From a virus, in the UHGV virus genome UHGV-0135926: a DNA stretch of 17,214 nt. One strand, given 5' to 3'. The translations under genes were made by a program, and so were the position numbers. Below are positions 2 through 11,816 of this stretch, one piece after another. Every line of letters begins with the position of its first letter. Within the stretch, counting starts at the first letter, position 1. The notes under the pieces were generated by a model, which worked only from the letters and a program-made list of their open reading frames with translations, was not told where the DNA came from and did not search any database.

Positions 2-307
2 TTGATAAATTCCGAAGTAAACCCATTTATTCAACAAAACCATTCATTGATGGTTTGTCAGGTTGCGATCAGTCAAGCAGACCATGATTTTCTTGATTGG
101 GACTCCTTTGTAAATTGCATTCAGGCCCATGAAGCATTTGACCTAGAGGTTATCAAAGAGCAGATAGCCGCTGACTATGGTGGGGTTTTGAAGGGGCGTA
201 TTACAGATCAATGTATGCAACAAGTTCGGACTGCTGTTATGGCGTCTAAAACAATGGTAAAACGCCACAAAAGATCGATACTTAATGCGCTTCAACAATA
301 TGAGTAA
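2..307 (+). CDS. Hypothetical protein, possibly 5'-truncated by the window edge (ORF is open to position 2; first in-frame ATG at 50)
   Basis: Open frame from the window edge to TAA at 305-307, followed immediately by a hairpin terminator. AT-richer than the neighbouring operon. No recognisable motif. Confidence 0.4.
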   Translation: MINSEVNPFIQQNHSLMVCQVAISQADHDFLDWDSFVNCIQAHEAFDLEVIKEQIAADYGGVLKGRITDQCMQQVRTAVMASKTMVKRHKRSILNALQQYE

Positions 308-341: not shown

Positions 342-614
342 TTAGCTAATTTTTCGCTTATCTGTTCTTACTCTCTCCCATTCAATTCTGCCTTCTTCAC
401 GCCGCTGGTCTATATACTCAGCAAGATCCTGAATGTTGATGCAGCGCTTTGCTTTCTGCGATGTTCCTACACGATAAGTTGGGATAGGTAACTGACAGGC
501 ATTTGCTTTCGCTTCTGCTGTGTTAGGGCTCATACCGAAATACTTTTGGCATACCGCTGACAGCTCGATGTTAGGCGTGTTGAACTCAGCCATAAGTAAA
601 AACAAAGTATTCAT
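342..614 (-). CDS. PrtN-family / excisionase-like small DNA-binding protein
   Basis: 90-aa ORF with ATG at 612-614 and GGAG about 8 nt upstream. Sequence (…FGMSPNTAEAKANACQLPIPTYRVGTSQKAKRCINIQDLAEYID…) resembles the pyocin-activator PrtN / Xis-like family from memory. Last gene of the leftward operon. Confidence 0.55.
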   Translation of the reverse strand: MNTLFLLMAEFNTPNIELSAVCQKYFGMSPNTAEAKANACQLPIPTYRVGTSQKAKRCINIQDLAEYIDQRREEGRIEWERVRTDKRKIS

Positions 615-652
615 AGACGTTCTCCATACAACCTGGCTGCACCCAGGGGAAA

Positions 653-1225
653 TTACAGGTCGCTGCTGGTGGCCGGAATCAACTTCTGCCAGATCGCGGA
701 CACGTATTTTGCTTGATGTCGCGCATCGGCCAGTGCGTTATGTGCAACCCCATCGAATGGCATATCTCGCTTTGGATCGAAACCCACCACTCTGCCTAAT
801 GTGACGATGGTTCTGACGTCGTGATCGTTCCAAAATTGCCACGGGCAAACCTGGCCGGCGCGCTCATATGCGCCGCGCAATATAACGTTGTCGAAAGTAG
901 CTCCATTGCCCCAAACTTTTAAATATTTTGGGTTATCAGAATGCCGATTAATGAAATGGCTCAGTTCAGATAGGGCAGACGATATCGGCATCGCATCATC
1001 AACACAGATTGCTGATCGTGCTTCTGAGCTTTGTCCTAACCACCACAGAATAGTGTCACCATCCGGCACCGCTCCCTGCTCCATAGCGCTTTCAAGGTTA
1101 ACGGCGGTGTAAAACTCCTGACCCAATTCACCGCTTTGCGGATCGAAGAATACGGCACCAATGGAGACGATAGGGGCATTCGGTTTTTTGCCCATGGATT
1201 CAAGGTCGATCATTAAGTTGTTCAC
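653..1225 (-). CDS. DEDDh-type 3'-5' exonuclease (DnaQ-like fold, phage-associated)
   Basis: 190 aa. Motifs IDLESMG (Exo I, D-x-E), WGNGATFD (Exo II) and HNALADA (Exo III, H…D) are present. GTG start at 1223-1225 lies 1 nt after the stop of the upstream gene, with AGGAG upstream. Confidence 0.7.
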   Translation of the reverse strand: MNNLMIDLESMGKKPNAPIVSIGAVFFDPQSGELGQEFYTAVNLESAMEQGAVPDGDTILWWLGQSSEARSAICVDDAMPISSALSELSHFINRHSDNPKYLKVWGNGATFDNVILRGAYERAGQVCPWQFWNDHDVRTIVTLGRVVGFDPKRDMPFDGVAHNALADARHQAKYVSAIWQKLIPATSSDL

Positions 1226-1226
1226 G

Positions 1227-2153
1227 TTAAATATTCTCCTGTTTTGGTGCTGCTTTAATCATTGCTGCCCAGCACAACTCAGCCCGGCGCGCCGCCTGGC
1301 GGCATCCACTCAATGCTTCGTATTCCTTCCACTCTTTTTCATCGCTGAAATGCGGATCTGGAACCGATTCGAAGCCGTTAATAATCATGTCCTCGGTCGG
1401 AACGATAGGAACCAGTACGTAACCATCCGGAGTAACCGGAGAGTTGCCCGAGATTGATTCCTGCAATCGTTCCAGCCTCACGTATTCCTGTACGCAGGCG
1501 CCTGAGTAATTATTAAGCCATATAGCAGCCTTTTCTGGTTCTGGCGTATACGTAACTACGTCGCCCGGCTTCCAGCATAGTGCGTACAAGTCGGCGACTG
1601 GTTTAAATTGGGTTTCAGCAAACTTGCAAGCCTGGAGCATGCTTTCTTCGAATTCTGCGACCTGTGGGTCTACTGGCGTAGATAAGTCGCGAACCGCATC
1701 GCCAGCTTGGAGCATGGCGGCGCGGCAGGCGTTCCATCCTCTGACCTCTGCGATTGCAGCTACAGCGTCTATTGCATGCATTTTCGACGCTTCTGGCATC
1801 GGCTTTTCATCTGGCAATACTGGCTCTGCGTTCCTCGATGCCAGCACCTCATCAATCACCTTCAACATATCTGCGAGAATGTAAGCTCTGTTCCCGCCGT
1901 TTGAGTACTGGGTATCATGCTGCAGGTGGTCGCGTATTTGGTGCAGGCGATCGAGTGATACAGGACCGTGCGACGGGTGGTTGTTAGTTGATTTAGAGAA
2001 ATTTCCCCGTTCGTTAATTAAATTACGATGAGTACGCAATTCTCGTAATGCTGAAATTATCTGTGAGAATTTCTCGTCATGAGGCAATGGACCAGAAGAA
2101 TTTACCGCTGATTTAATCAGGCTATCTAACTGCTCATTGGTTATTTTTTCCAT
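1227..2153 (-). CDS. Hypothetical protein (308 aa), no recognisable domain
   Basis: Long ORF. Start chosen at ATG 2151-2153 (MEKITNEQ…), which has AAGGAG 6 nt upstream and overlaps the stop (2153-2155) of the upstream gene. The track's longer start at 2174 has no RBS. Confidence 0.6.
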   Translation of the reverse strand: MEKITNEQLDSLIKSAVNSSGPLPHDEKFSQIISALRELRTHRNLINERGNFSKSTNNHPSHGPVSLDRLHQIRDHLQHDTQYSNGGNRAYILADMLKVIDEVLASRNAEPVLPDEKPMPEASKMHAIDAVAAIAEVRGWNACRAAMLQAGDAVRDLSTPVDPQVAEFEESMLQACKFAETQFKPVADLYALCWKPGDVVTYTPEPEKAAIWLNNYSGACVQEYVRLERLQESISGNSPVTPDGYVLVPIVPTEDMIINGFESVPDPHFSDEKEWKEYEALSGCRQAARRAELCWAAMIKAAPKQENI

Positions 2154-2614
2154 TACCTTCTCCTTATTTCCCAAAGAACGCGTGTAACACCACCATTTCC
2201 TACCGGGTCTCGCTTATCTTTCAGTGCAACGCTTGATGCTGCCCACCCTTTTCTCGCGGGAAGTTCCTTAACCCGGACAAAACCAGCCGCGCGCAGCGAT
2301 GCCCCGGATTCATCCGCTTGGGTGTAGGTTATGCAGCGCTGATAACCCATAGCCTTTGCTGCCCGCCAGATTGCTCCATAAAGAGCGCTGTTAGCGTTGC
2401 GCTCTCCAGTTGTGCAAGTACGGTTAACCTCCAGAGTAAGGCCATCATCGAAATTCCTGGCTATTGGTCTTCCTGCGGTAGCTACGCCAATCAATTCACC
2501 ATCAGAATTTTTCAGACCGATACTAAATTTATGTCCTGTTGGCGGTTTGTTGTGACGGTGATGTTTCGCCACAAATTCTTTGGCAACTTTTAAGGTGATT
2601 GGTGAAATCTGCAT
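2153..2614 (-). CDS. Hypothetical protein (153 aa); possible acyltransferase-like fold (weak)
   Basis: ORF with ATG at 2612-2614, GGGGGAG upstream and its stop overlapping the next start. Family not confidently recognised; the C-terminal …ADESGASLRAAGF… is loosely GNAT-like. Confidence 0.55.
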   Translation of the reverse strand: MQISPITLKVAKEFVAKHHRHNKPPTGHKFSIGLKNSDGELIGVATAGRPIARNFDDGLTLEVNRTCTTGERNANSALYGAIWRAAKAMGYQRCITYTQADESGASLRAAGFVRVKELPARKGWAASSVALKDKRDPVGNGGVTRVLWEIRRR

Positions 2615-3001
2615 TCACTCCCCCTTCACGCCAATGCCAGCGGCGCTCTCAAGTAATTCGTCAGCGGCCTGAATTTCAGGATGTTCGTCATAATCAGGAA
2701 GATAGCGACGGGCTACAGCTGCAAGGCTGTTTAGCACCTTACGGTGGTCTGCTACGCGCTTCTCTGCGGCTTCCAGCTTTTCACGCGCCTCCCGCATATC
2801 GTCACGCATAGCAATCGCAACTGCTTCAAGCGAATCTTTGTCGCGCTGTAGTTGGAGATTCTCATCCAGCAGCGCCAGCACTCGTTGCGCCAGCCAGCGC
2901 TTTTCTTCATCGCCATATGCGTTGTCGGCTATCTCTTTGAGACGCCCTGCTCCAATATCACCGCCATCAGCTCGGTATGCCTGTTTGTTGAGTGCTTTCA
3001 T
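2615..3001 (-). CDS. Ead/Ea22-like coiled-coil early protein
   Basis: 128 aa, charged and alpha-helical (…RWLAQRVLALLDENLQLQRDKDSLEAVAIAMRDDMREAREKLEAAEKR…), resembling the ead/Ea22 family of lambdoid early-left regions. ATG at 2999-3001 overlaps the upstream stop (ATGA). Confidence 0.6.
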   Translation of the reverse strand: MKALNKQAYRADGGDIGAGRLKEIADNAYGDEEKRWLAQRVLALLDENLQLQRDKDSLEAVAIAMRDDMREAREKLEAAEKRVADHRKVLNSLAAVARRYLPDYDEHPEIQAADELLESAAGIGVKGE

Positions 3002-3252
3002 TGGGCTGCTCCCTGTCTGGCGCTATTCAATAGCTGGTTAAACATCATGGTTAAGCTGTTACTGCACCCAAACGGCATATCGTTAACACGGTATGTTGGT
3101 ATGCCCTTGCGAACACCAGACTTCACGATCCGGCCGGTGCCATAGAGTTGCGATAATGCGCCAGCGACCGCGGGTGTCTTTTTGTTCATACCTTTGGCGA
3201 TTTCACCGCTGGTGGTATTCGGATGAGCCTGGAGATATTCAAATACGGTCAT
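2998..3252 (-). CDS. Small hypothetical protein (84 aa), possibly winged-helix DNA-binding
   Basis: ORF with ATG at 3250-3252 overlapping the upstream stop (ATGA); stop overlaps the next start. No firm family assignment. Confidence 0.5.
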   Translation of the reverse strand: MTVFEYLQAHPNTTSGEIAKGMNKKTPAVAGALSQLYGTGRIVKSGVRKGIPTYRVNDMPFGCSNSLTMMFNQLLNSARQGAAQ

Positions 3253-3416
3253 GGCGTTTTACCTTTACGTTCCTGTTCCAGTTGCACCAGAGACTCTTTT
3301 AATGCTGCGAACGTAGCTTCCAGTCTGGTGGCGACTTCGCGCATAAGCGGTGCATGCTTTGGTGGCAATTCAGTAACGGAGGCAAAAGCCTCCGCTACGA
3401 GTTCTTTTACCTTCAT
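3249..3416 (-). CDS. Small hypothetical protein (55 aa), not in the ORF track (below its length cut-off)
   Basis: Hand translation of the minus strand gives MKVKELVAEAFASVTELPPKHAPLMREVATRLEATFAALKESLVQLEQERKGKTP. ATG at 3414-3416 overlaps the TGA of the HD-domain gene (ATGA) and its own TGA overlaps the next ATG, so it fills the gap with perfect coupling. Confidence 0.35.
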   Translation of the reverse strand: MKVKELVAEAFASVTELPPKHAPLMREVATRLEATFAALKESLVQLEQERKGKTP

Positions 3417-3952
3417 GCGGCGCATTGGCGCAGCTCCACCAGTTCGTTAAAGCGATTCATGAACAGGCCATAGGCTTGACCAGGACGGAGAGGAATAACC
3501 TGAACGAGATCAGAGCAGGGAATACCTTCGAGAATTTCCCACTTCGAACCGTCATCGATTTCCAGATCACGGCGCTCGGTAGCTAACATGGTTAGATCGG
3601 CATATTTCACGACGGCAGCTTGCTCAAGCTGGATACCGAATTTAAAGCGGATAAGACCATCAATATAAGTTTCCATGCGCTGGTAGTCAGGCAGCAAGGC
3701 TTTGAGCGGGGCCGGAATATCCTGGCAATATGCCTCCGCAGCGTCGTGCATTAGCGCTTCAAAGGCGAACTCTGGCGGCACAATCTGGCTTACAAGCACA
3801 GAGTGCTGGGCCACACTGTAGAACTCTGGGAGATGCCCAGCGAATCGACAGATGTTGGAAAGAGCAGTCGCGATATCCTCAACATCGATATCGTCGATTG
3901 TGGCGGTCAGGTAGTTAAATTTTTTACCGGAAAATGTCTGAATGTAGCTCAT
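3413..3952 (-). CDS. yfdR: HD-domain phosphohydrolase, YfdR-like 5'-deoxynucleotidase
   Basis: Start chosen at ATG 3950-3952 (MSYIQTF…) with GGAG about 8 nt upstream. H…HD metal-binding signature (…ALMHDAAEAY…). Size (~179 aa) and position after the YfdQ-like gene match CPS-53 yfdR. Confidence 0.75.
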   Translation of the reverse strand: MSYIQTFSGKKFNYLTATIDDIDVEDIATALSNICRFAGHLPEFYSVAQHSVLVSQIVPPEFAFEALMHDAAEAYCQDIPAPLKALLPDYQRMETYIDGLIRFKFGIQLEQAAVVKYADLTMLATERRDLEIDDGSKWEILEGIPCSDLVQVIPLRPGQAYGLFMNRFNELVELRQCAA

Positions 3953-4034
3953 GTCTTTCTCCATATTGGCGCGCTGCACCGCGCAGATTTTGGTTGCACG
4001 AATCCCTCGCCGGTTGGCGATAATTAATGGAATT

Positions 4035-4058
4035 ACGCTTCAATAAATCCCCGCGGCG
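4035..4058 (-). terminator. GC-rich hairpin with flanking A/T runs; candidate partial (bidirectional) terminator inside the leftward operon
   Basis: aaatccccg (4035-4043) / cggggattt (4050-4058), loop cggcgc, located between the YfdQ-like stop (4081) and the YfdR-like start. Confidence 0.4.
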
Positions 4059-4080
4059 CCGGGGATTTAATGCAGAGCAA

Positions 4081-4908
4081 TTAGGCTTTAAAGTTACCGA
4101 TGAAAGTTTCCACTGATTCGCCTTCGAACTTGCTGATCAGCAAATCGCGGAATTCGTTGGCGATCGCTTCTTCCTGAGCTTCAAGTTGGACAATGCGCAG
4201 AACAAAGCAGGGTTCATCGCTAGTCAGCAGGCTGTTACGCAAGCTAAAGCGGCGTTCGCCCAGGCCTTCATACGGCATACATTTGAACTCGAACGCCACA
4301 GGCATTACGTCTTTGCTGCTTGCTTCAACGCTTTGCATCAGCGATTTTTTACCAGCGAAATCACCAGTTTCATGGTCCTGCTGTGTTGCTTGCTGAATAG
4401 TGATACGACGCACAGCCTGAGCCGCCTGGGAAATCTGCATCGTATTGCCATCAGCATCAAACGCCAGCAGGTAATCGCTCCAGTCTTCCAGCCATTCAGC
4501 AATTTGCTTTTGTTTCAGACGTTGACCATCGATCTGCAGTAACGCGCGGAACGGGGCGGTTTTCTTCAGGGTGATTGAAGCAACGTTATCGGCGTGACCA
4601 GGATTATCCAGGGTGCCGATGTTGAACACTGAACGGGCGGTCATGTTGTCAGCGTCAATGAAGCAACGAGCTGGTTCACTGTCGCTGGCGTAACCTTTAG
4701 AATAACGTGCGAAGTCGTCAATACTGGTTGTGGTCATTTCGCCACGAAAGCGGAAACGTTCCAGAGAAAAGCGCTCGAGGCTTTCAACGCCAGTACCCTC
4801 TGGCAGTAATGCGGTCGGGCAAGCCAGGCCATGAATATCATTCAGGTGATAACCGGAAAGAACCAGGTCTTTGACCTGCTTGAAGGTACCGCTGTCTAAC
4901 TGAGACAT
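4081..4908 (-). CDS. yfdQ: YfdQ-family protein (DUF2303-like)
   Basis: 275 aa; ATG at 4906-4908 with AAGGA about 8 nt upstream. Sequence, size and gene order match the CPS-53 yfdP-yfdQ-yfdR arrangement as I recall it. Confidence 0.7.
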   Translation of the reverse strand: MSQLDSGTFKQVKDLVLSGYHLNDIHGLACPTALLPEGTGVESLERFSLERFRFRGEMTTTSIDDFARYSKGYASDSEPARCFIDADNMTARSVFNIGTLDNPGHADNVASITLKKTAPFRALLQIDGQRLKQKQIAEWLEDWSDYLLAFDADGNTMQISQAAQAVRRITIQQATQQDHETGDFAGKKSLMQSVEASSKDVMPVAFEFKCMPYEGLGERRFSLRNSLLTSDEPCFVLRIVQLEAQEEAIANEFRDLLISKFEGESVETFIGNFKA

Positions 4909-4964
4909 AAAAATTCCTTATTAACTGATGATCAAAGTGGTATCAGTGAGTTTGTTGTTGCGGA

Positions 4965-5336
4965 TCACTGAGCCGCTTTAAGCTTTCCATCCACCGCGCC
5001 AGTGATCCCGAACAGCTGACCCTGATCTTCCTGCAGGATGGTGAGCTTCCCGCCTTTGTTGACCCACATCGGGGTTTCGGTTGTGTCCTCTTCGGAGGCT
5101 TTACCACGCGGTGTTGGGGTGCTGTAGTTCAGCTTGTGCTTGATCTTGACGCGCTTCTCTTCAACGGAATTACCCATGCGCTCAAAATCAAAGGTGAGGA
5201 CTACTTTGCCTTTGTTGCCGTTGTTCAGAACGCCAAGCGCGGTGGTGTTAAGTGCTGCCGCGATTTTGTTCATGAACACGCCGGCATCCAGTTCGCCAAG
5301 AAAATCTGGCACTACGGTCATGCGGTCATTACTCAT
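4965..5336 (-). CDS. First gene of the leftward operon; YfdP-like by size and position (123 aa), function unknown
   Basis: ATG at 5334-5336 with GAGGG 7 nt upstream. Not arginine-rich, so not an N-type antiterminator. Confidence 0.6.
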   Translation of the reverse strand: MSNDRMTVVPDFLGELDAGVFMNKIAAALNTTALGVLNNGNKGKVVLTFDFERMGNSVEEKRVKIKHKLNYSTPTPRGKASEEDTTETPMWVNKGGKLTILQEDQGQLFGITGAVDGKLKAAQ

Positions 5337-5466
5337 GGTTTTACCCTCGTTAAGGCGGCTGCCACCGCCGAACTTTCTCCATACTCAACTGGAAGCGCAC
5401 TCCGCTTGTTTCACACCTGTCACCCATAACTGGTAAGTGAAGGAGTGCGCTTTCATGTTGTGATCT

Positions 5467-5517
5467 GAAAAAGGCTGGCGGTTACCGGAAATACACGGGA
5501 AAACACCGGTCCGCCAG
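5467..5517 (-). terminator. Intrinsic terminator in the pL leader (tL-like)
   Basis: Minus-strand RNA: CUGGCGG-ACCGG-(17-nt loop)-CCGGU-AA-CCGCCAG followed by CCUUUUUC. That is 12 bp of stem with a 2-nt bulge. Plus-strand coordinates 5475-5517 for the stem and 5467-5474 for the U-tract. Confidence 0.6.
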
Positions 5518-5797
5518 AACATGGAGTTACTTGTTATTGCTTTAGCCTGCTTTTAACCACATCAGGCGCGGTGGTAGGTATCTTCGGGCGGGGGCCAGTG
5601 ACTAGCTGGCATCCCTACGGTACTTTTCACCGACAACCGCGGGTTAGACGGTTCCGTTTCGTCGGATAGAGCTGTCGACGCTGGTAGTCACTCCAGCCCG
5701 TAACCCCTCCCGAAGACACCTGTCAGCGAATCATCCGGTTATTCATACGTCACCGGCGGCTACTTCGTGGGCGTCCTGCCTGTTCGCTGTTTCGTAT

Positions 5798-5831
5798 AGG
5801 TACATTATGTACCTTGAGGGTACATTGTCAA
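5798..5831 (-). promoter_or_regulatory. pL promoter with overlapping OL operator(s)
   Basis: On the minus strand: TTGACA (plus 5826-5831), 16-nt spacer, CATAAT (plus 5804-5809). A perfect 19-bp palindrome ATGTACC-ttgag-GGTACAT (5807-5825) overlaps the spacer and -10, with an extra half-site forming AGGTACAT-t-ATGTACCT (5798-5814). Confidence 0.6.
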
Positions 5832-5833
5832 GG

Positions 5834-5859
5834 ATAAAAAAACCTGCCGAAGCAGGTTT
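5834..5859 (-). terminator. Terminator of the repressor transcript
   Basis: Stem aaacctgc (5840-5847) / gcaggttt (5852-5859), loop cgaa, followed on the minus strand by a run of seven U (plus-strand A 5836-5842). Sits between the cI stop (5871) and the pL -35. Confidence 0.65.
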
Positions 5860-5870
5860 GTGATGATGGG

Positions 5871-6545
5871 TTAAGGCTTATGCCTGTGCCGTCGTGGTTT
5901 TCCTGAGAAAACAACGGTGCCAATAATCGAGCAATTACCATTGATCCTAATATATGGCTCTGGCCAGTTGGCGTTTAAAGCTTTAAGAAACTTTTCGCCA
6001 CTATCTTCTATTAATCGTTTAAACGTCGTTTCGCCAGAATCATGCATTAAAGCAATAACATCATCGCCATGAGAAGCTGCAACCTCTGGATCTACAAAAA
6101 TCATATCGCCAGGACGATACTCATCGATCATTGAATCACCAATGACGCGTAAGATATAAGTCATTGGCCCGCACGGAACGGGACAAGGATATGTTTCTAC
6201 ACTACTCAAATCTACCTCTGCATAACCAGCATCCGTCCATGCTCCGGCTTGCACCCAGGATATAACCGGGACCATCGTAATTGATCTTTTAACGTCTGAA
6301 ACGTCGGGTGATTTAGCAATGTTGGTAGTTTGATGTTCGGTATCTAGCCAACCTTGAGGCAAGTCAAAACATTTTTCGATATGCCTTGCCATAGCGTCAC
6401 CAATACCTTTGGTGGCACCTTCACCCATAAACCGGCTGGTTTGTGTAGGTTCACGATCGATCATGTTAGCGAAGTAGCTATTACCCCCAACACCATCTCT
6501 CAATTTTCGGGCGTTTAATCGCCTGATTTCCTGGATAGTTTTCAT
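5871..6545 (-). CDS. cI: CI-type repressor with C-terminal LexA-like S24 peptidase domain (SOS-cleavable)
   Basis: C-terminal half resembles P22 C2 / lambda CI (ISWVQAG…, RVIGDSM with catalytic Ser, TFKRL with catalytic Lys, …INGNCSIIGTVV). N-terminal XRE-like HTH. ATG at 6543-6545 chosen over the track's TTG at 6560 because the putative pRM places the TSS on that ATG. Confidence 0.85.
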   Translation of the reverse strand: MKTIQEIRRLNARKLRDGVGGNSYFANMIDREPTQTSRFMGEGATKGIGDAMARHIEKCFDLPQGWLDTEHQTTNIAKSPDVSDVKRSITMVPVISWVQAGAWTDAGYAEVDLSSVETYPCPVPCGPMTYILRVIGDSMIDEYRPGDMIFVDPEVAASHGDDVIALMHDSGETTFKRLIEDSGEKFLKALNANWPEPYIRINGNCSIIGTVVFSGKPRRHRHKP

Positions 6546-6551
6546 CAGCAA

Positions 6552-6630
6552 ATTAAACAATGTGTACCTCTATGGTACAAGTACCTTGTGGGTTCATTTC
6601 TTTCGTGTAATATGTACACAGGAGGTACAT
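6552..6630. promoter_or_regulatory. OR region: three 19-bp operators, pRM (leftward) and pR (rightward)
   Basis: Operators GTGTACC-tctat-GGTACAA (6562-6580), AAGTACC-ttgtg-GGTTCAT (6579-6597), ATGTACA-cagga-GGTACAT (6612-6630). pRM on minus: TTGTAC (6575-6580), 17 nt, TTTAAT (6552-6557), 6 nt, then ATG. pR on plus: TTGTGG (6586-6591), 16 nt, TAATAT (6608-6613). Confidence 0.55.
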
Positions 6631-6633
6631 ATT

Positions 6634-6834
6634 ATGAAAGAGTATTGGGACTCTTTAACTAAAGAGCAGCAAGGCGAATTAGCTGGAAGCGTAGGTTCCA
6701 CGCCTGGCTACCTGCGTTTAGTTTTCAATGGCTACAAAAAGGCAGGTTTTTCCTTGGCTAAAAAGCTGGAGGAAACAACTGCTGGGATTATCAGCAAATC
6801 TGATCTTCGTCCTGACATTTACCCTAAACAGTAG
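6634..6834 (+). CDS. cro: Cro-like / YdaS-like small HTH regulator
   Basis: 66 aa from ATG 6634 with GGAGG 8 nt upstream; the track's upstream extension lacks an RBS and overlaps the operators. Ends …LRPDIYPKQ, typical of YdaS/Cro-like proteins. Divergent from the repressor. Confidence 0.75.
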   Translation: MKEYWDSLTKEQQGELAGSVGSTPGYLRLVFNGYKKAGFSLAKKLEETTAGIISKSDLRPDIYPKQ

Positions 6835-6877
6835 CAGACGAGCTGATTTTTATAACCACAGAATTAAGGGGTTAACC

Positions 6878-7429
6878 GTGGGTAACGAACCTATTTGGAA
6901 AGTCGAACGTCAGCCAGCCTGGCTGGTGGCGGCGATAAAAAAAACGATCACCGATCTACCTGGTGGTTATGCCGAGGCGGCGGAATGGTTGGGCGTGACA
7001 GAGAACGCATTGTTTAACCGCCTTCGTGTTGACGGCGATCAGATCTTCCCGCTGGGCTGGGCAATGGTTTTACAACGTGCTGGTGGTTCAACTCATATCG
7101 CTGATGCCGTTGCGCGCCATTCTCAGGGCGTATTTGTACCGCTGGCAGATGTTGATGATCTGGATAACGCCGATATCAACCAGCGCCTGATGGAGTCCAT
7201 CGAATGGATAGGCCGTCATTCTAATTTTGTACGTAAAGCCACGGCTGATGGGGTGATTGACGCAGATGAGCGCGCTCAGATTGAGGAAAACAGCTATCAG
7301 GTTATTGCGAAGTTCCAGGAGCACGTAGCGCTTCTTTATCGAGTTTTTTGTGTCGCTGAAAAGAGTGACGCCCGCGAGTGTGCAGCTCCGGGCGCCTTGG
7401 CGAACAACTCTTCGAGTATGGAGAAATAA
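6878..7429 (+). CDS. YdaT-like protein at the CII position
   Basis: Start chosen at GTG 6878 (AGGGG 6 nt upstream); the frame has no Met before this point that does not overlap cro. Follows the YdaS-like gene as in the Rac prophage ydaS-ydaT pair. Confidence 0.55.
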   Translation: MGNEPIWKVERQPAWLVAAIKKTITDLPGGYAEAAEWLGVTENALFNRLRVDGDQIFPLGWAMVLQRAGGSTHIADAVARHSQGVFVPLADVDDLDNADINQRLMESIEWIGRHSNFVRKATADGVIDADERAQIEENSYQVIAKFQEHVALLYRVFCVAEKSDARECAAPGALANNSSSMEK

Positions 7430-7601: not shown

Positions 7602-7781
7602 GTGCGCGAACTTAACCGAAGGTTCAAAGATCACCGTGGAGTGCCAGTCCGTGTTATCCGCTGGGAGCCAGAAACACAGCGCGTTATCTATCTGCGTGAT
7701 GGCTACCCGCACGAATGCTTCAGCCCACTTGAGCATTTCAGGCAAAAGTTCAGGGAGATAACGGACGATCATGAGCACTAA
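7602..7781 (+). CDS. Candidate small protein (59 aa, GTG start); an antisense ORF on the minus strand is an alternative
   Basis: Hand translation: VRELNRRFKDHRGVPVRVIRWEPETQRVIYLRDGYPHECFSPLEHFRQKFREITDDHEH. GGAGG lies 11 nt upstream; the stop overlaps the replication gene start by 11 nt. Contains rare codons (AGG x2, CGA, ATA), so it is weak. Confidence 0.25.
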   Translation: MRELNRRFKDHRGVPVRVIRWEPETQRVIYLRDGYPHECFSPLEHFRQKFREITDDHEH

Positions 7782-8628
7782 ATTAACCGGCTACGTATGG
7801 GATGGTTGCGCGGCGTCGGGCATGAAGTTGTCTAGTGTCGCGATCATGGCCCGCCTCGCTGATTTCAGCAGCGATGAGGGCGTGTGCTGGCCGTCCATTG
7901 AAACTATTGCTCGCCAGCTTGGCGCAGGGCCGAGCACTATCAGAACGGCAATCGCTAAGCTTGAAAAAGATGGCTGGCTCACGCGTACACAGCGCCGTAA
8001 TGGTAACCGTAATGCTTCGAACGTGTACCGCCTGAATGTGGCGAAACTTCAGGCTGCCGCATTTTCTCAACTGTCAGATTCTGACACGTCAAAATCTGAC
8101 GCATCAAAATTTGACGCCTCAAAAACTGACCCGTCGAAATCCGTCAAAAACGGCGGTTTTGACCCGTCAGAATCTGGCGGGGATCCGTCAGTAAAATCAA
8201 AACAAGATCCACAAGTAACTTCAAAACCCTCTTGTCCGGTTGCGGCGCAACCAGACCCTGAAGTCGTGATTACTGATCAGGCAATTTTGGTTCTGACCCA
8301 TTTGAACAAGATCAGCGGATCCCGGTATCAGAAATCAAAAACATCCCTGGAGAACATCCGTGCCCGACTGCGTGAGGGATACAGCGTTGCAGACCTGCAA
8401 CTGGTTATCGACCTGAAGCATGAGCACTGGCACGAGAACGACGAGCAGTACCAGTACATGCGCCCGGAAACGCTGTTCGGCCCGAAGAAATTCGAGAGCT
8501 ATCTGCAAAGCGCTACCCGCTGGGAGCAGAAGGGACGGCCTAAACGCGCTGACTGGGGTGCGAAAAAGCGCGATGTGATGGCTTTTGGTCCGGTTGATAC
8601 AACGATTCCAGAGGGGTTCAGAGGATGA
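7771..8628 (+). CDS. Replication initiator (lambda O-like role): N-terminal HTH, iteron-encoded repeat linker, conserved phage C-terminal domain
   Basis: 285 aa; the internal peptide repeat SDSDTSKSDASKFDASKTDPSKS is encoded by the iteron array. Position downstream of the CII analogue. Stop overlaps the next start (ATGA). Confidence 0.8.
   Translation: MSTKLTGYVWDGCAASGMKLSSVAIMARLADFSSDEGVCWPSIETIARQLGAGPSTIRTAIAKLEKDGWLTRTQRRNGNRNASNVYRLNVAKLQAAAFSQLSDSDTSKSDASKFDASKTDPSKSVKNGGFDPSESGGDPSVKSKQDPQVTSKPSCPVAAQPDPEVVITDQAILVLTHLNKISGSRYQKSKTSLENIRARLREGYSVADLQLVIDLKHEHWHENDEQYQYMRPETLFGPKKFESYLQSATRWEQKGRPKRADWGAKKRDVMAFGPVDTTIPEGFRG
8071..8198. repeat. Origin-type iteron array inside the replication gene (15-bp period)
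   Basis: Tandem TGACACGTCAAAATC (8082-8096), TGACGCATCAAAATT (8097-8111), TGACGCCTCAAAAAC (8112-8126), TGACCCGTCGAAATC (8127-8141), then degenerate copies to 8198. Followed by an A-rich stretch. Confidence 0.7.
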
Positions 8629-9506
8629 CGTTAAACAAATATTGCCAGTCGCTGGCGGAACTACGTAGCCAACCAGCCCACGAATTGAAAGAAGTTGGCG
8701 ATCAGTGGCGAACACCGGATCTGCTTTTTTGGGGGATCAACGCGCTATTTGGTCCATTAGTTCTGGACTTGTTTGCTGACGCCGACAACGCGAAATGCCC
8801 GGCATGGTACACCGCCGAAGATAACGCGCTGACGCAGGACTGGTCTGAACGTCTGGCAGAACTGGGTGGCGCTGGCTATGGCAACCCACCGTATAGCCGT
8901 TCGCAGTACCACGAGAAACAGGCGATCACTGGTATGACGCACATCATGAAATACGCAGCAGCCCAGCGCGAGAAGGGCGGTCGCTATGTATTCCTGATAA
9001 AAGCCGCGCCGAGTGAAACGTGGTGGCCGGAAGATGCCGATCACATTGTATTCATTCGCGGGCGCATTGGGTTCGATCTGCCTGTGTGGTTTGTACCTGC
9101 TGACGAAAAACAGAAACCCACCAGCGCGTTTTTTGCCGGTGCCATAGCTGTATTCGATAAGTCGTGGCGTGGTGAGCGGTTCAGCTATATCAACCGCACA
9201 GAACTGGAGGCAAAAGGTCGGGAATTTATGGCGCTGGCTCAATTCGCTGTTGGTAAAGAGCAAACAATTGCAGTGCGGACAGCCCAGGAACCAGTAATAC
9301 CATCGGAAACTGAGTCACGTATCTGGCCTCTAGAGGTTGGTCTGGTGTTTAACCAGGTGGAAGGCGTTGACGTATTGAGTGAGGCTCAGCAGAACAAGCT
9401 GAAAGCCAACATCAATCAACTCTGGCTGGAACGAACGGCCACCAGCGAAATTATTACAATTGCGCGTGGTCTTGTTGGCAGCATGCAGGGGGTAACCCAT
9501 GCGTGA
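8625..9506 (+). CDS. Phage Dam-family DNA N6-adenine methyltransferase
   Basis: 293 aa; catalytic NPPY motif (…GYGNPPYSRS…). Translationally coupled to both neighbours (ATGA at 8625, 8-nt overlap with the next gene). Confidence 0.8.
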   Translation: MTLNKYCQSLAELRSQPAHELKEVGDQWRTPDLLFWGINALFGPLVLDLFADADNAKCPAWYTAEDNALTQDWSERLAELGGAGYGNPPYSRSQYHEKQAITGMTHIMKYAAAQREKGGRYVFLIKAAPSETWWPEDADHIVFIRGRIGFDLPVWFVPADEKQKPTSAFFAGAIAVFDKSWRGERFSYINRTELEAKGREFMALAQFAVGKEQTIAVRTAQEPVIPSETESRIWPLEVGLVFNQVEGVDVLSEAQQNKLKANINQLWLERTATSEIITIARGLVGSMQGVTHA

Positions 9507-11433
9507 GATTATCGTTGATAACTTTGCTGGTGGCGGTGGCGCATCAACGGGTATTGAACTGGCGATCGGGCGCAGCGTGGATATTGCGATAAACCACGAC
9601 GAAAACGCCATTGCGATGCACAAGACGAACCACCCGGACACACTGCATTATTGTGAATCCGTATTTGACGTGGATCCGGTAGCCGCCACCGGAGGTCATC
9701 CTGTCGGACTGGCATGGTTTAGCCCGGACTGCCGACACTTCTCGAAGGCAAAAGGCGCAAAGCCTGTGAAAAAAGAGATACGCGGTCTGGCCTGGATTGT
9801 TCTGCGTTGGGCACTGGCAAAGCGACCGCGCGTGATGATGCTGGAGAACGTGGAAGAGTTCAAAACGTGGGGACCGCTGCTGGCCGATGAAATGCGTCCG
9901 GATCCTGCCCGCACTGGCGAAACATTCAATGCATTTGTCGGCATGCTGTCCACTGGCATTCCTGCTGATCACCCGGCACTGGCTGAGGTTTGTGAGTTTC
10001 TGTCTATCGAAAGAGGTAGCGAGCAGGCACAAAAGCTGGTGGATGGGCTGGGATATGATGTTGATTATCGCGAACTACGTGCGTGTGATTACGGCGCGCC
10101 GACGATCCGCAAACGCTTCTTCATGGTTATGCGTTGCGATGGTTGCCCAATCCAGTGGCCTGCTATTACCCATGGGGATCCTAAGTCTCTGGAGGTGCAA
10201 AGTGGCAGGCTGATGCCATGGCGTACCGCTGCGGAATGTATCGACTGGAATATTCCGGCCCTGTCCATCTTCGACCGCAAAAAACCGCTGGCGGAGAACA
10301 CTCTGAAGCGGATCGCGCGCGGCATACAGCGCTTTGTTATCGAAAGTGCGTCGCCGTTTATTGTGAAGTGCAACCACACGAGCTCAAAAAATGCGTATGA
10401 CGCTTTTCGCGGACAGTCACTGAATGAGCCATTACAGACCATTACTAAAAAACTCGGCTACGCGTTAGCCGTTCCACACCTGACAAAATTCCGCACTGGC
10501 GCAACCGGGCAGCCCCTTACCGAACCTGTTCCGACGGTAACCGCTGGCACGTCAAAACGCCCGGGCGGGAACGGGCATGCACTCGGGATTGTTGAGGCTG
10601 CACTGACGCCATTCCTGGCGGGTAATGGTGGTAGTGAATACCAGGCGAAACCGCGCCCGCTGGATAAACCTGCTCATACCATTCTGAAGCAATCCCGAGC
10701 CTGTCTGGTTGCGCCAGTGATAGCCCGCCAGTTTGGGGCCAGCGTCGGCCACCGTGCAGACGAACCGAGCGCAACCATCACCGCTGGTGGTGGCGGTAAA
10801 TCTCAACCGGTAACGCCTACGCTGATTCAGATGGGTTATGGCGAACGACCTGGGCAAGAACCGCGTGTGCTGCGACTGGATAACCCGCTGGGGACCGTTA
10901 CTGCAGGCGGAAATAAATTTGCGACGGTGAGCGCGTTCCTGGCGAAACACTACGGCGGTAACTATACGGGGCCTGGTGTCAGTATGGATGAACCCGCGCA
11001 TTCAGTGACCACTGTCGACCATCATGCGGTAGTTGCCTCTCATCTGGTGAAACTGCGTGGAACATGCCGCGACGGGCAACGCCTTGATGTGCCAATGCCA
11101 ACAATCACTGCTGGTGGCCAACACGTGGGTGAGGTACGCACATTTCTCGAGACGTATTGCGGGGAAAGTGACGATGAATGGCTGGTAACGATCGATGGGG
11201 TTAAATACCAGATCGTTGATATCGGAATGCGCATGTTGCAGCCGCATGAACTCTACAAAGCGCAGGGCTTCCCGGATGGTTACGTTATTGATCAGGACTA
11301 CCGTGGAAATCGCTATGCAAAAGATAAGCAGGTAGCCCGCTGCGGTAATGCGGTACCACCACCATTCGCCAGGGCGCTGGTGGAGGCAAATCTTCCGGAA
11401 CTGTGTGCAGTGCAACAGCAGGAGGTGGCATGA
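9499..11433 (+). CDS. DNA cytosine-5 methyltransferase with a long repeat-containing variable region
   Basis: 644 aa. Motif I FAGGGG, PC-type motif SPDCRHFS, motif VI MLENV, motif VIII TIRKRFFMV, motif IX LQPHELYKAQGFPDGY, motif X RCGNAVPPPF. Between VIII and IX there are seven tandem units with core h-[DNT]-[EKNV]-P-x-x-[TS]-[IV]-T. Confidence 0.85.
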   Translation: MREIIVDNFAGGGGASTGIELAIGRSVDIAINHDENAIAMHKTNHPDTLHYCESVFDVDPVAATGGHPVGLAWFSPDCRHFSKAKGAKPVKKEIRGLAWIVLRWALAKRPRVMMLENVEEFKTWGPLLADEMRPDPARTGETFNAFVGMLSTGIPADHPALAEVCEFLSIERGSEQAQKLVDGLGYDVDYRELRACDYGAPTIRKRFFMVMRCDGCPIQWPAITHGDPKSLEVQSGRLMPWRTAAECIDWNIPALSIFDRKKPLAENTLKRIARGIQRFVIESASPFIVKCNHTSSKNAYDAFRGQSLNEPLQTITKKLGYALAVPHLTKFRTGATGQPLTEPVPTVTAGTSKRPGGNGHALGIVEAALTPFLAGNGGSEYQAKPRPLDKPAHTILKQSRACLVAPVIARQFGASVGHRADEPSATITAGGGGKSQPVTPTLIQMGYGERPGQEPRVLRLDNPLGTVTAGGNKFATVSAFLAKHYGGNYTGPGVSMDEPAHSVTTVDHHAVVASHLVKLRGTCRDGQRLDVPMPTITAGGQHVGEVRTFLETYCGESDDEWLVTIDGVKYQIVDIGMRMLQPHELYKAQGFPDGYVIDQDYRGNRYAKDKQVARCGNAVPPPFARALVEANLPELCAVQQQEVA

Positions 11434-11816
11434 AACTTGTGCTCCCGTTCCCTCCGAGCGTGAACACGTACTGGCGCGCCCCTAATAAGGGGCCGCTGGC
11501 CGGTCGTCACCTCATTAGCGCTGATGCTCGTAAATACCAGAGCGCTGCCTGCGTGGCGATCATTGAGCAATTACGACGTCTCCCGAAGCCATCGACTGAA
11601 CTGGCAGCGGTAGAAATCACTCTGTACCCGCCGGATGCGCGCCGCCGGGATATCGATAATTACAACAAAGCCCTGTTTGACGCGCTGACGCATGCGGGTG
11701 TCTGGGAAGACGACAGCCAGATTAAGCGCATGCTGGTGGAATGGGGACCCGTAGTGCCGAAAGGTCGGGTAGAGATAACGATCAGCAGATATGAACCGGC
11801 GGGTGCAGCCGCCTGA
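11430..11816 (+). CDS. rusA: RusA Holliday-junction resolvase
   Basis: 128 aa from ATG 11430 (AGGAGGTGG upstream, ATGA overlap with the methyltransferase stop). Clear similarity to E. coli RusA (…LPFPPSVNTYW…, …DARRRDIDNYNKALFDALT…). Confidence 0.85.
   Translation: MKLVLPFPPSVNTYWRAPNKGPLAGRHLISADARKYQSAACVAIIEQLRRLPKPSTELAAVEITLYPPDARRRDIDNYNKALFDALTHAGVWEDDSQIKRMLVEWGPVVPKGRVEITISRYEPAGAAA

Follow-up and report, generated by a model that had tools for sequence, protein, structure and literature searches.

About one-fifth of lambdoid phages have neither a recombination (Rec) module nor an inhibitor of RecBCD, and these no-Rec phages bear many Chi sites, almost all in one orientation (Zheng, Casjens, Davidson, Amundsen, and Smith, Genome Res 2025; PMC12315714). 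Growth of LLS, the type phage of this class, is improved by RecBCD. Its early-left operon is nearest to those of ST64B and phiNP and holds homologues of yfdR, yfdQ, and yfdP, which are named for the ST64B left operon too and which Zheng et al. argue are not cryptic recombinases, and its Chi density is one site per 1.86 kb (PMC12315714). Here we analyze an operon containing the same three genes on a stretch of 17,214 nucleotides (nt) from the virus genome UHGV-0135926 (the window; positions are given in window numbering). An earlier reading of this DNA from its letters and open reading frames (ORFs) alone (the sequence-only reading) had taken the operon for a candidate host-takeover or anti-defense cluster, with the missing recombinase as an implied puzzle. 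The operon is real, and the missing recombinase already has an explanation in the literature: the window strongly and quantitatively matches the published "no Rec module, high Chi" class (PMC12315714).

The early-left operon and the no-Rec, high-Chi class

Ten co-oriented ORFs fill positions 342-5336 of the minus strand (Table 1). The pL promoter lies directly past the cI terminator, confirming that this is a leftward early operon, and family assignments from Pfam, PHROGs, and NCBIfam profile scans bore out its make-up of accessory genes. Operator-like repeats (GGTACA...TGTACC) overlap or flank pL. With starts corrected against annotated relatives, the gaps at the nine gene junctions are 56, 128, -13, -4, -4, 0, -1, 1, and 38 nt, and a Shine-Dalgarno-like motif precedes all ten starts. 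The genes had been described as tightly coupled, which holds for seven of the nine junctions, where they overlap or sit no more than 1 nt apart. The list of genes given in the sequence-only reading was essentially right, but it counted a YfdR-like protein and an HD hydrolase separately although they are one gene, and it omitted the 308-amino acid (aa) protein.

The window has the map of lambda in its conventional orientation. Specifically, xis lies at the distal end of the early-left operon, which is followed by pL and cI and then, on the plus strand, by cro, a CII-like gene, an O-type initiator gene, the genes for a Dam-type methyltransferase (MTase) and a 644-aa C5 MTase, a RusA-like resolvase gene in the nin region, an antirepressor gene (Ant), DUF968/HNH, Q, and the lysis genes. 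This is the lambdoid gene order (xis, early-left, pL, cI, cro, cII, O, nin, Q, lysis) that characterizes the class. The nearest DNA relatives of the window are ST64B, phiNP, 118970_sal3, and LLS, and positions 342-5336 make up the early-left (pL) operon of a lambdoid prophage of the ST64B/phiNP/LLS type. The top matches to YfdQ come from Citrobacter freundii, with 97-98% identity; the host of the phage is probably C. freundii or a close relative.

Profile scans of the operon and the rest of the window detected no Red-beta, RecT, Erf, Sak4, Exo, single-stranded DNA-binding protein (SSB), Gam, Abc2, Kil, CIII, or N family, a negative result that covers families detectable by profile. Searches by tblastn with Erf, Abc2, RecT, and Gam queries found none of them in 79 distinct related loci. 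The statement that no recombinase or N is recognizable here was thus upheld. The early-left region is, as in the class, without annealing protein, partner exonuclease, SSB, or anti-RecBCD gene. The Red module of lambda, the Erf-Abc module of P22, and the RecET module of Rac occupy the identical slot, from pL to xis, and none of their component families is present in the operon. The only recombination-related gene in the window encodes the RusA-like Holliday-junction resolvase.

Chi (GCTGGTGG) is the commonest octamer of the window. It occurs 16 times in the 17.2 kb, against 0.62 occurrences expected and a maximum of 4 in shuffled sequences (n = 200), with 14 sites on the plus strand and 2 on the minus strand. 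The two sites within the left operon hold the genome-wide orientation, which runs against the direction of the genes there. All 14 of the GCTGGTG heptamers on the plus strand end in G, which is a sign of selection acting for the complete Chi site. The density of one site per 1.08 kb is ~4-fold that quoted for E. coli K-12 (PMC12315714). Genomes of the no-Rec, high-Chi class have at least 8 Chi sites in the active orientation and at most 6 in the other; the window, with 14 and 2, shows this within 17.2 kb alone. The same bias was found in 114 related viral loci, with 398 sites on the pR-sense strand against 86 on the opposite one. The phage is a member of the described class.

The window and the LLS-type phages have in common the lambdoid map, the lack of a Rec module and of N, early-left yfdP, yfdQ, and yfdR genes with ~80% DNA similarity across yfdR-yfdP, and many Chi sites of near-uniform orientation. 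In both, the O-type initiator gene stands without a helicase loader, as it does in LLS and 34 other lambdoid phages (Zheng et al., PMC12315714). There are also differences. Chi is sparser in LLS than in the visible 17 kb of the window, LLS is said to lack a RusA-like nin resolvase whereas the window has one, and the distal cargo of the left operon differs, the window encoding the XF1762-family and 308-aa proteins.

In this phage, dense co-oriented Chi sites take the place of a phage-encoded annealing protein, exonuclease, and RecBCD inhibitor. Host RecBCD would engage an end of the phage DNA, encounter Chi, and pass into its recombination mode with loading of RecA. Going by the class, the RusA-like resolvase of the phage would then cut the resulting junctions. 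Such a scheme would amount to a division of labor in which end processing and strand exchange fall to the host and junction resolution to the phage. The slot freed by the missing Rec module holds a mosaic of accessory cargo. Its conserved core is yfdP-yfdQ-yfdR, with the excisionase gene at the distal end and a variable set between them, comprising the genes for the 58-aa, winged-helix, Ead/Ea22, XF1762/Mom-related, 308-aa mosaic, and DEDDh exonuclease proteins.

A structured RNA and a terminator in the pL leader

Between pL and yfdP lies a leader of ~460 nt, which gives a better fold than shuffled controls (z = -3.0) and has two conserved blocks. One of them, at the 5' end of the pL transcript, is a structured RNA of ~64 nt, upstream of the ten genes to which the sequence-only reading was confined. 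The RNA is a three-way junction composed of P1 (6 bp), P2 (GGC-AGGAC-GCC), and P3 (5 bp). Its core, GGCAGGACGCCCACGAAGUAGC, is invariant in five phages found by similarity. Using the core as a search pattern we gathered 98 distinct sequences, in which the invariance of core and P2 is a matter of ascertainment. Across these sequences 95.5% of cells are paired in the three-helix junction, and 9 of the 14 pairs vary on both sides. P1 alternates between CGAA/UUCG, UCAUC/GAUGA, and CCACC/GGUGG, and at several positions of P3 four types of pair occur. Covariation scored 0.562, compared with 0.145 in shuffles (none of 500 reached the observed value) and at most 0.128 in slid controls. RNAalifold independently gave the same helices.

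The RNA was found in 51 phage records with 80-97% identity, the flanks and repressors being unrelated. These include ST64B, SfV, SfII, SfIV, phiNP, mEp237, mEp460, SPN3UB, and SEN34, and also the Yersinia phages YeP1-3, Pantoea AH07, Pectobacterium ZF40, Klebsiella phages, and Aeromonas pAEv1818. In four phages that were inspected the RNA lies directly past the repressor gene, and it is unannotated in most records. An exact-core scan of viral contigs gave more than 120 loci. Overall, at least 51 phage records and more than 110 viral contigs carry the RNA; they come from Escherichia, Shigella, Salmonella, Citrobacter, Yersinia, Pectobacterium, Pantoea, Klebsiella, and Aeromonas. In 47 of 97 flanks there is a strong sigma-70 promoter no more than 70 nt upstream of the RNA, compared with 1 of 64 controls, and in related loci with a strong promoter P1 starts 12-23 nt past the -10 element. 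A full copy (71.8 bits with our covariance model, R1) is present in the terminal repeat of the virulent T5-like Providencia phage vB_PreS_PR1 (2979-3058, plus strand of that locus), showing that the RNA is not limited to lambdoid pL leaders. This copy heads a unit that leads on to PR1_7 and PR1_6 and to the DNA-transfer proteins A2 and A1 (pre-early genes).

No known family was found for the RNA. A scan of the whole window with Rfam at gathering thresholds gave nothing, and at E <= 1 over 5300-5900 the only matches were two chance ones at 5824-5900, outside the RNA. Identity with the put RNAs of HK022 and HK639 was rejected, blastn-short and R1 both being negative, including against the annotated putL-like RNA of HK639. 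A literature search on the core sequence found no paper.

Farther downstream in the leader is a strong intrinsic terminator. It ends a block of ~110 nt that is near-identical in E. coli EC2001, where the flanks have diverged. A 45-aa ORF overlapping the terminator hairpin belongs to no family; we rejected it as a candidate for N, Kil, or CIII, and it is probably not a gene. A transcript from pL would thus pass the three-helix RNA and then the strong terminator with no N protein. We suggest that the RNA makes RNA polymerase resistant to the terminator 200 nt downstream, in an RNA-mediated and factor-independent manner. This proposal draws on the position and conservation of the RNA, the terminator downstream of it, and the absence of N. 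Judged by the anatomy of the leader, antitermination by an RNA, analogous to put but a different RNA, is most likely what serves this N-less operon.

The closest described counterparts are HK022 putL and the putL-like RNA of HK639, which are likewise cis RNAs, 60-70 nt long, that open the pL transcript of a lambdoid phage lacking N and lie upstream of terminators. The window shares with the HK022 type this promoter-proximal placing, and homology to put in sequence or structure was not found. The put RNAs consist of two adjacent stem-loops, whereas the leader RNA is a three-way junction whose activity we deduce from anatomy. HK022 has putL and putR copies; the leader RNA is single. The invariance of its core in five phages of diverse hosts would be in keeping with a target conserved among the hosts, RNA polymerase for instance.

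The yfdP-yfdQ-yfdR core and the variable cargo

In the window a YfdP-family protein comes before the DUF2303 protein (YfdQ) and the HD-domain protein YfdR after it, the arrangement that defines the YfdP-YfdQ-YfdR module. The cryptic prophage CPS-53 (KplE1) of E. coli K-12 has yfdP, yfdQ, and yfdR in the same order and with the same spacing, at 59, 57, and 69% identity, respectively. CPS-53 is a remnant, whereas the window derives from an apparently intact phage. It also has yfdS, yfdT, and TorI, of which no homologues were found in the window; the excisionase of the window is of the PrtN type.

YfdR belongs to the HD-domain 5'-deoxynucleotidase family, and K-12 YfdR is annotated as a 5'-deoxynucleotidase. 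The H...HD...D metal-binding motif is intact (QH at residues 49-50, HD at 69-70), and the nearest solved structure is PDB 2gz4 (2.4e-10). Against the Pfam YfbR-like model the protein scored 17.2, under the cut-off of 25.9. In the ORF list yfdR runs further, to a GTG at 3979. K-12 YfdR binds DnaA via Phe46, in moderate competition with DiaA and DnaB, and multicopy yfdQ and yfdR together with yfdS or yfdT inhibit initiation at oriC, an effect that the authors caution may be an artifact of overexpression (Noguchi and Katayama 2016; PMC4776307). Because the window has no yfdS or yfdT, this oriC-inhibition function transfers to it only in part. By analogy with the K-12 protein, YfdR most likely binds domain I of DnaA and damps host initiation at oriC. 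Host takeover, as proposed for the whole operon, therefore has published support for YfdR, through a K-12 orthologue that binds DnaA (PMC4776307), and has none for the other genes. The O-type initiator lacks a helicase loader, and we speculate that a DnaA-binding YfdR may be relevant to the recruitment of DnaB.

YfdP is found in 180 phage records and so is YfdQ, their taxon counts being nearly the same. Among the 79 related loci they occur together in 25 of 25, neither ever alone, and their genes lie side by side in Vibrio phage VvAW1, Xanthomonas phage Soumapaz, and Vibrio phage 1.232.O. A precomputed match to PF27127, a family newer than the Pfam copy that we scanned, exists for YfdP homologues. 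A search of PDB sequences matched YfdQ to entry 9o7m, "YfdQ Protein" (E = 1e-86), which contains 36 YfdQ chains (example chain, C); a literature search found no paper for this entry. Fold searches with predicted structures of YfdQ and YfdP gave no recognizable relatives in a library with entries to April 2026, 9o7m not among them, and the models did not match the Rad52/Redbeta/Erf, RecT, RecA/Sak4, or Gp2.5 folds. YfdP and YfdQ are an obligate two-protein module and not a substitute recombinase.

The remaining genes are variable cargo, and most of the accessory genes are of ordinary kinds. In the DEDDh exonuclease the catalytic motifs are present (D7/E9, D112, H162/D167), and the nearest solved relatives are PDB 8ken and 8kel, "Exodeoxyribonuclease" (~3e-10). 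The ATG of the 308-aa gene overlaps the stop codon upstream of it by one base. The gene for the XF1762-family protein was found in none of the 79 related loci and is rare, sporadic cargo.

Mom of phage Mu is a DNA carbamoylmethylation acyltransferase. The N-terminal part of the Mom profiles aligns with the N-terminal ~105-130 residues of the 153-aa XF1762-family protein, which lacks the C-terminal half. Its score of 27.0 bits against PF25680 (profile positions 3-118 of 202) falls under the cut-off of 27.1 and leaves it outside the Mom family. We considered whether this Mom-like gene is a truncated pseudogene, and this was ruled out by the full-length match to NF045478, the protein being a complete member of the shorter XF1762 family. 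The window holds three genes of DNA-modification type within 17 kb, encoding this XF1762/Mom-related protein, a Dam-family N6-adenine MTase, and the 644-aa C5-cytosine MTase, which has extra domains.

At the left end of the window an ORF runs off the edge; its product shares 69% identity with the C-terminal part of an E. coli EC2001 protein of 153 aa. The EC2001 gene follows that for a Panacea-domain protein and lies between an excisionase gene and a truncated tRNA-dihydrouridine synthase gene. This context suggests a toxin-antitoxin-type cargo pair at the end of a prophage integrated in dusA. On the other side of cI, the CII-like ORF as listed overlaps the end of cro by ~100 nt, and its family match starts at residue 55; its true start is probably further downstream.

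Table 1. Positions of genes, transcription signals, and Chi sites in the window
Feature	Position	Strand	Evidence or remark
ORF running off left end	2-307	+	
PrtN-family excisionase (recombination directionality factor), last operon gene	342-614	-	phrog_1300
Rv2179c-like DEDDh 3'-5' exonuclease	653-1225	-	PF16473, 3.6e-74
Chi	665-672	+	antisense to exonuclease gene
308-aa mosaic protein	1227-2153	-	matches only PHROGs without assigned function
XF1762-family protein, 153 aa, acyltransferase-fold	2153-2614	-	NF045478, 200 bits, full-length
Ead/Ea22-like coiled coil, 128 aa	2615-3001	-	PF13935, 31.9 bits
84-aa winged-helix (MarR/FaeA-like) putative DNA-binding protein	2998-3252	-	phrog_1687
Chi	3208-3215	+	antisense to 84-aa gene
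58-aa orphan protein	3249-3425	-	phrog_12248
yfdR, HD-domain 5'-deoxynucleotidase family	3413-3952	-	phrog_318 "deoxyribonucleoside 5'-monophosphate phosphatase," 7.5e-97
yfdQ/DUF2303, 275 aa	4081-4908	-	PF10065, 2e-65
yfdP-like, 123 aa	4965-5336	-	phrog_204
45-aa ORF, probably not a gene	5385-5522	-	overlaps terminator hairpin; no family match
Strong intrinsic terminator in pL leader	5465-5517	-	stem 5475-5517, -19.4 kcal/mol, then CCUUUUUCA
Leader block of ~110 nt ending in terminator	5465-5575	-	near-identical in E. coli EC2001
Structured leader RNA, ~64 nt, 5' end of pL transcript	5725-5788	-	covariation; covariance model R1, 90.4 bits
pL promoter	5804-5831	-	TTGACA, 16 nt, CATAAT; 11/12 consensus matches; near-consensus sigma-70
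cI intrinsic terminator	5840-5859	-	8-bp stem, then T run
cI repressor, Peptidase_S24	5871-6560	-	family match
CII-like ORF, as listed	6728-7429	+	family match from residue 55
Chi, twelve more	starts 6922, 7079, 9526, 10035, 10783, 11110, 11376, 11732, 11883, 13006, 15077, 16024 (to 16031)	+	
O-type initiator region	7771-8628	+	no helicase loader
Dam-family N6-adenine MTase and 644-aa C5-cytosine MTase	8625-11433	+	family matches
Chi, two opposite	9118, 9439	-	
RusA-like Holliday-junction resolvase, nin region	11403-11816	+	phrog_34, 1.1e-54

Alternative readings and implications

The position of yfdP and yfdQ just downstream of pL, exactly in the slot of a Rec module, would also suit a pair that, perhaps with the DEDDh exonuclease, forms an unrecognized system for recombination or DNA-end handling, in which case the phage would not be truly recombinase-less. 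RdgC fills this same slot in a prophage of E. coli Nissle 1917 with an otherwise syntenic left operon (6081-6998, minus strand of that locus), and RdgC and YfdPQ are mutually exclusive across the 79 related loci. An SSB gene lies two genes from the pair in VvAW1, the chain make-up of 9o7m is compatible with a large oligomer plus other chains, and deletion of yfdQ is reported to make E. coli sensitive to methyl methanesulfonate (cited in PMC4776307). We nevertheless regard this reading as quite improbable. Canonical recombinases accompany the pair in Soumapaz (recombinase, exonuclease, and SSB) and 1.232.O (Rad52-like), and ArgO145 has YfdPQ with a full Rec module (PMC12315714). These cases agree with the view that YfdP and YfdQ are not cryptic recombinases; together with the lack of a fold match they led us to reject, as the main reading, YfdQ as a hidden recombinase or an RdgC analogue. 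The extreme enrichment of Chi, moreover, points to host-driven recombination. That enrichment also bears on whether the window is simply a decaying cryptic prophage that has lost its Rec genes and accrued Chi passively, as the host chromosome does. CPS-53, with the same yfdPQR core, is just such a remnant, and Zheng et al. raise the caveat for prophage data sets (PMC12315714). In the window, however, none of the ten genes is disrupted, their starts are coupled, and each has a ribosome-binding site; the regulatory region, Q, and the lysis genes are intact as well. Chi occurs about once per 1.1 kb with a 14:2 bias that tracks the phage map and not gene direction, and the arrangement is common to plaque-forming LLS, ST64B, and phiNP. 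We consider decay highly improbable.

We also consider it unlikely that the operon serves mainly in anti-defense, with immune signals made of nucleotides or oligonucleotides broken down by the HD hydrolase and the exonuclease, and with DNA modified by the XF1762/Mom-like protein as a guard against restriction. Some counter-defense enzymes do use HD and DEDDh folds. The operon would be expressed early, from pL, the XF1762 family has kinship to the Mom DNA-modification acyltransferase, and Dam-type and 644-aa C5 MTases are also encoded by the phage. The proposal that the HD phosphohydrolase and the 3'-5' exonuclease form a signal-degrading pair did not survive comparison with other loci. The two genes are five genes apart in the window, and of the 36 related loci that extend 6 kb or more downstream, 6 have both, 9 have yfdR alone, and 3 have the exonuclease gene alone, with a variable spacing of 0.6-2.6 kb, so they are not an obligate pair. 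YfdR is of the 5'-deoxynucleotidase family, whose documented properties are a deoxynucleoside monophosphate substrate and DnaA binding, and the XF1762 gene is missing from all of the related loci. Defense-system models (PADLOC) matched nothing among the operon proteins beyond a weak generic DEDDh hit, and homology of the operon products to defense systems was accordingly rejected, which leaves the anti-defense reading unsupported within the scope of these models.

The reading that we prefer is of a pL operon of the no-Rec, high-Chi class, which carries accessory cargo, a YfdR that acts on DnaA, a YfdP-YfdQ module, and an RNA-based antitermination device. Several points weigh against it. The RecBCD dependence of this phage is drawn from its membership of the class. 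The window is just 17 kb of a prophage, and a Rec gene could lie elsewhere, although both usual sites (left operon and nin region) fall wholly within it. The effect on DnaA in E. coli required yfdQ, yfdR, and yfdS or yfdT at high copy, and the window is without the last two. In a strict scan, strong terminators lie downstream of the RNA in 23 of 105 loci against 20 of 225 in the background (22% versus 9%), a modest enrichment; a lenient scan, with 83% against 65% in the background, was uninformative and gave no grounds for a universal downstream terminator. The window has no second copy of the RNA on the pR side, the next-best R1 score being 10 bits, and the RNA lacks a match to HK022 or HK639 put. 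Taken together, we judge the whole explanation to be probable. We advance more tentatively, as a possibility, that a previously undescribed class of cis leader RNA switches on the N-less pL operon as a functional analogue of put and that, as a second point, YfdP and YfdQ are perhaps a new early-phage protein machine.

The window adds a Citrobacter-type example to the class published in 2025, and it shows that a Rec-less lambdoid phage can be recognized from a 17-kb fragment by the density and strand bias of Chi. The absence of a recombinase does not imply a hidden function in the operon genes. In phages of enterobacteria, vibrios, and xanthomonads, YfdP and YfdQ rank among the commonest early gene pairs that lack an explanation, and the only structure solved for them, 9o7m, is unpublished. 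If the leader RNA is an antiterminator, it would explain early expression in some T5-like phages and across a large group of lambdoid phages without N, and it would be a second, independent RNA answer to the problem solved by HK022 put.

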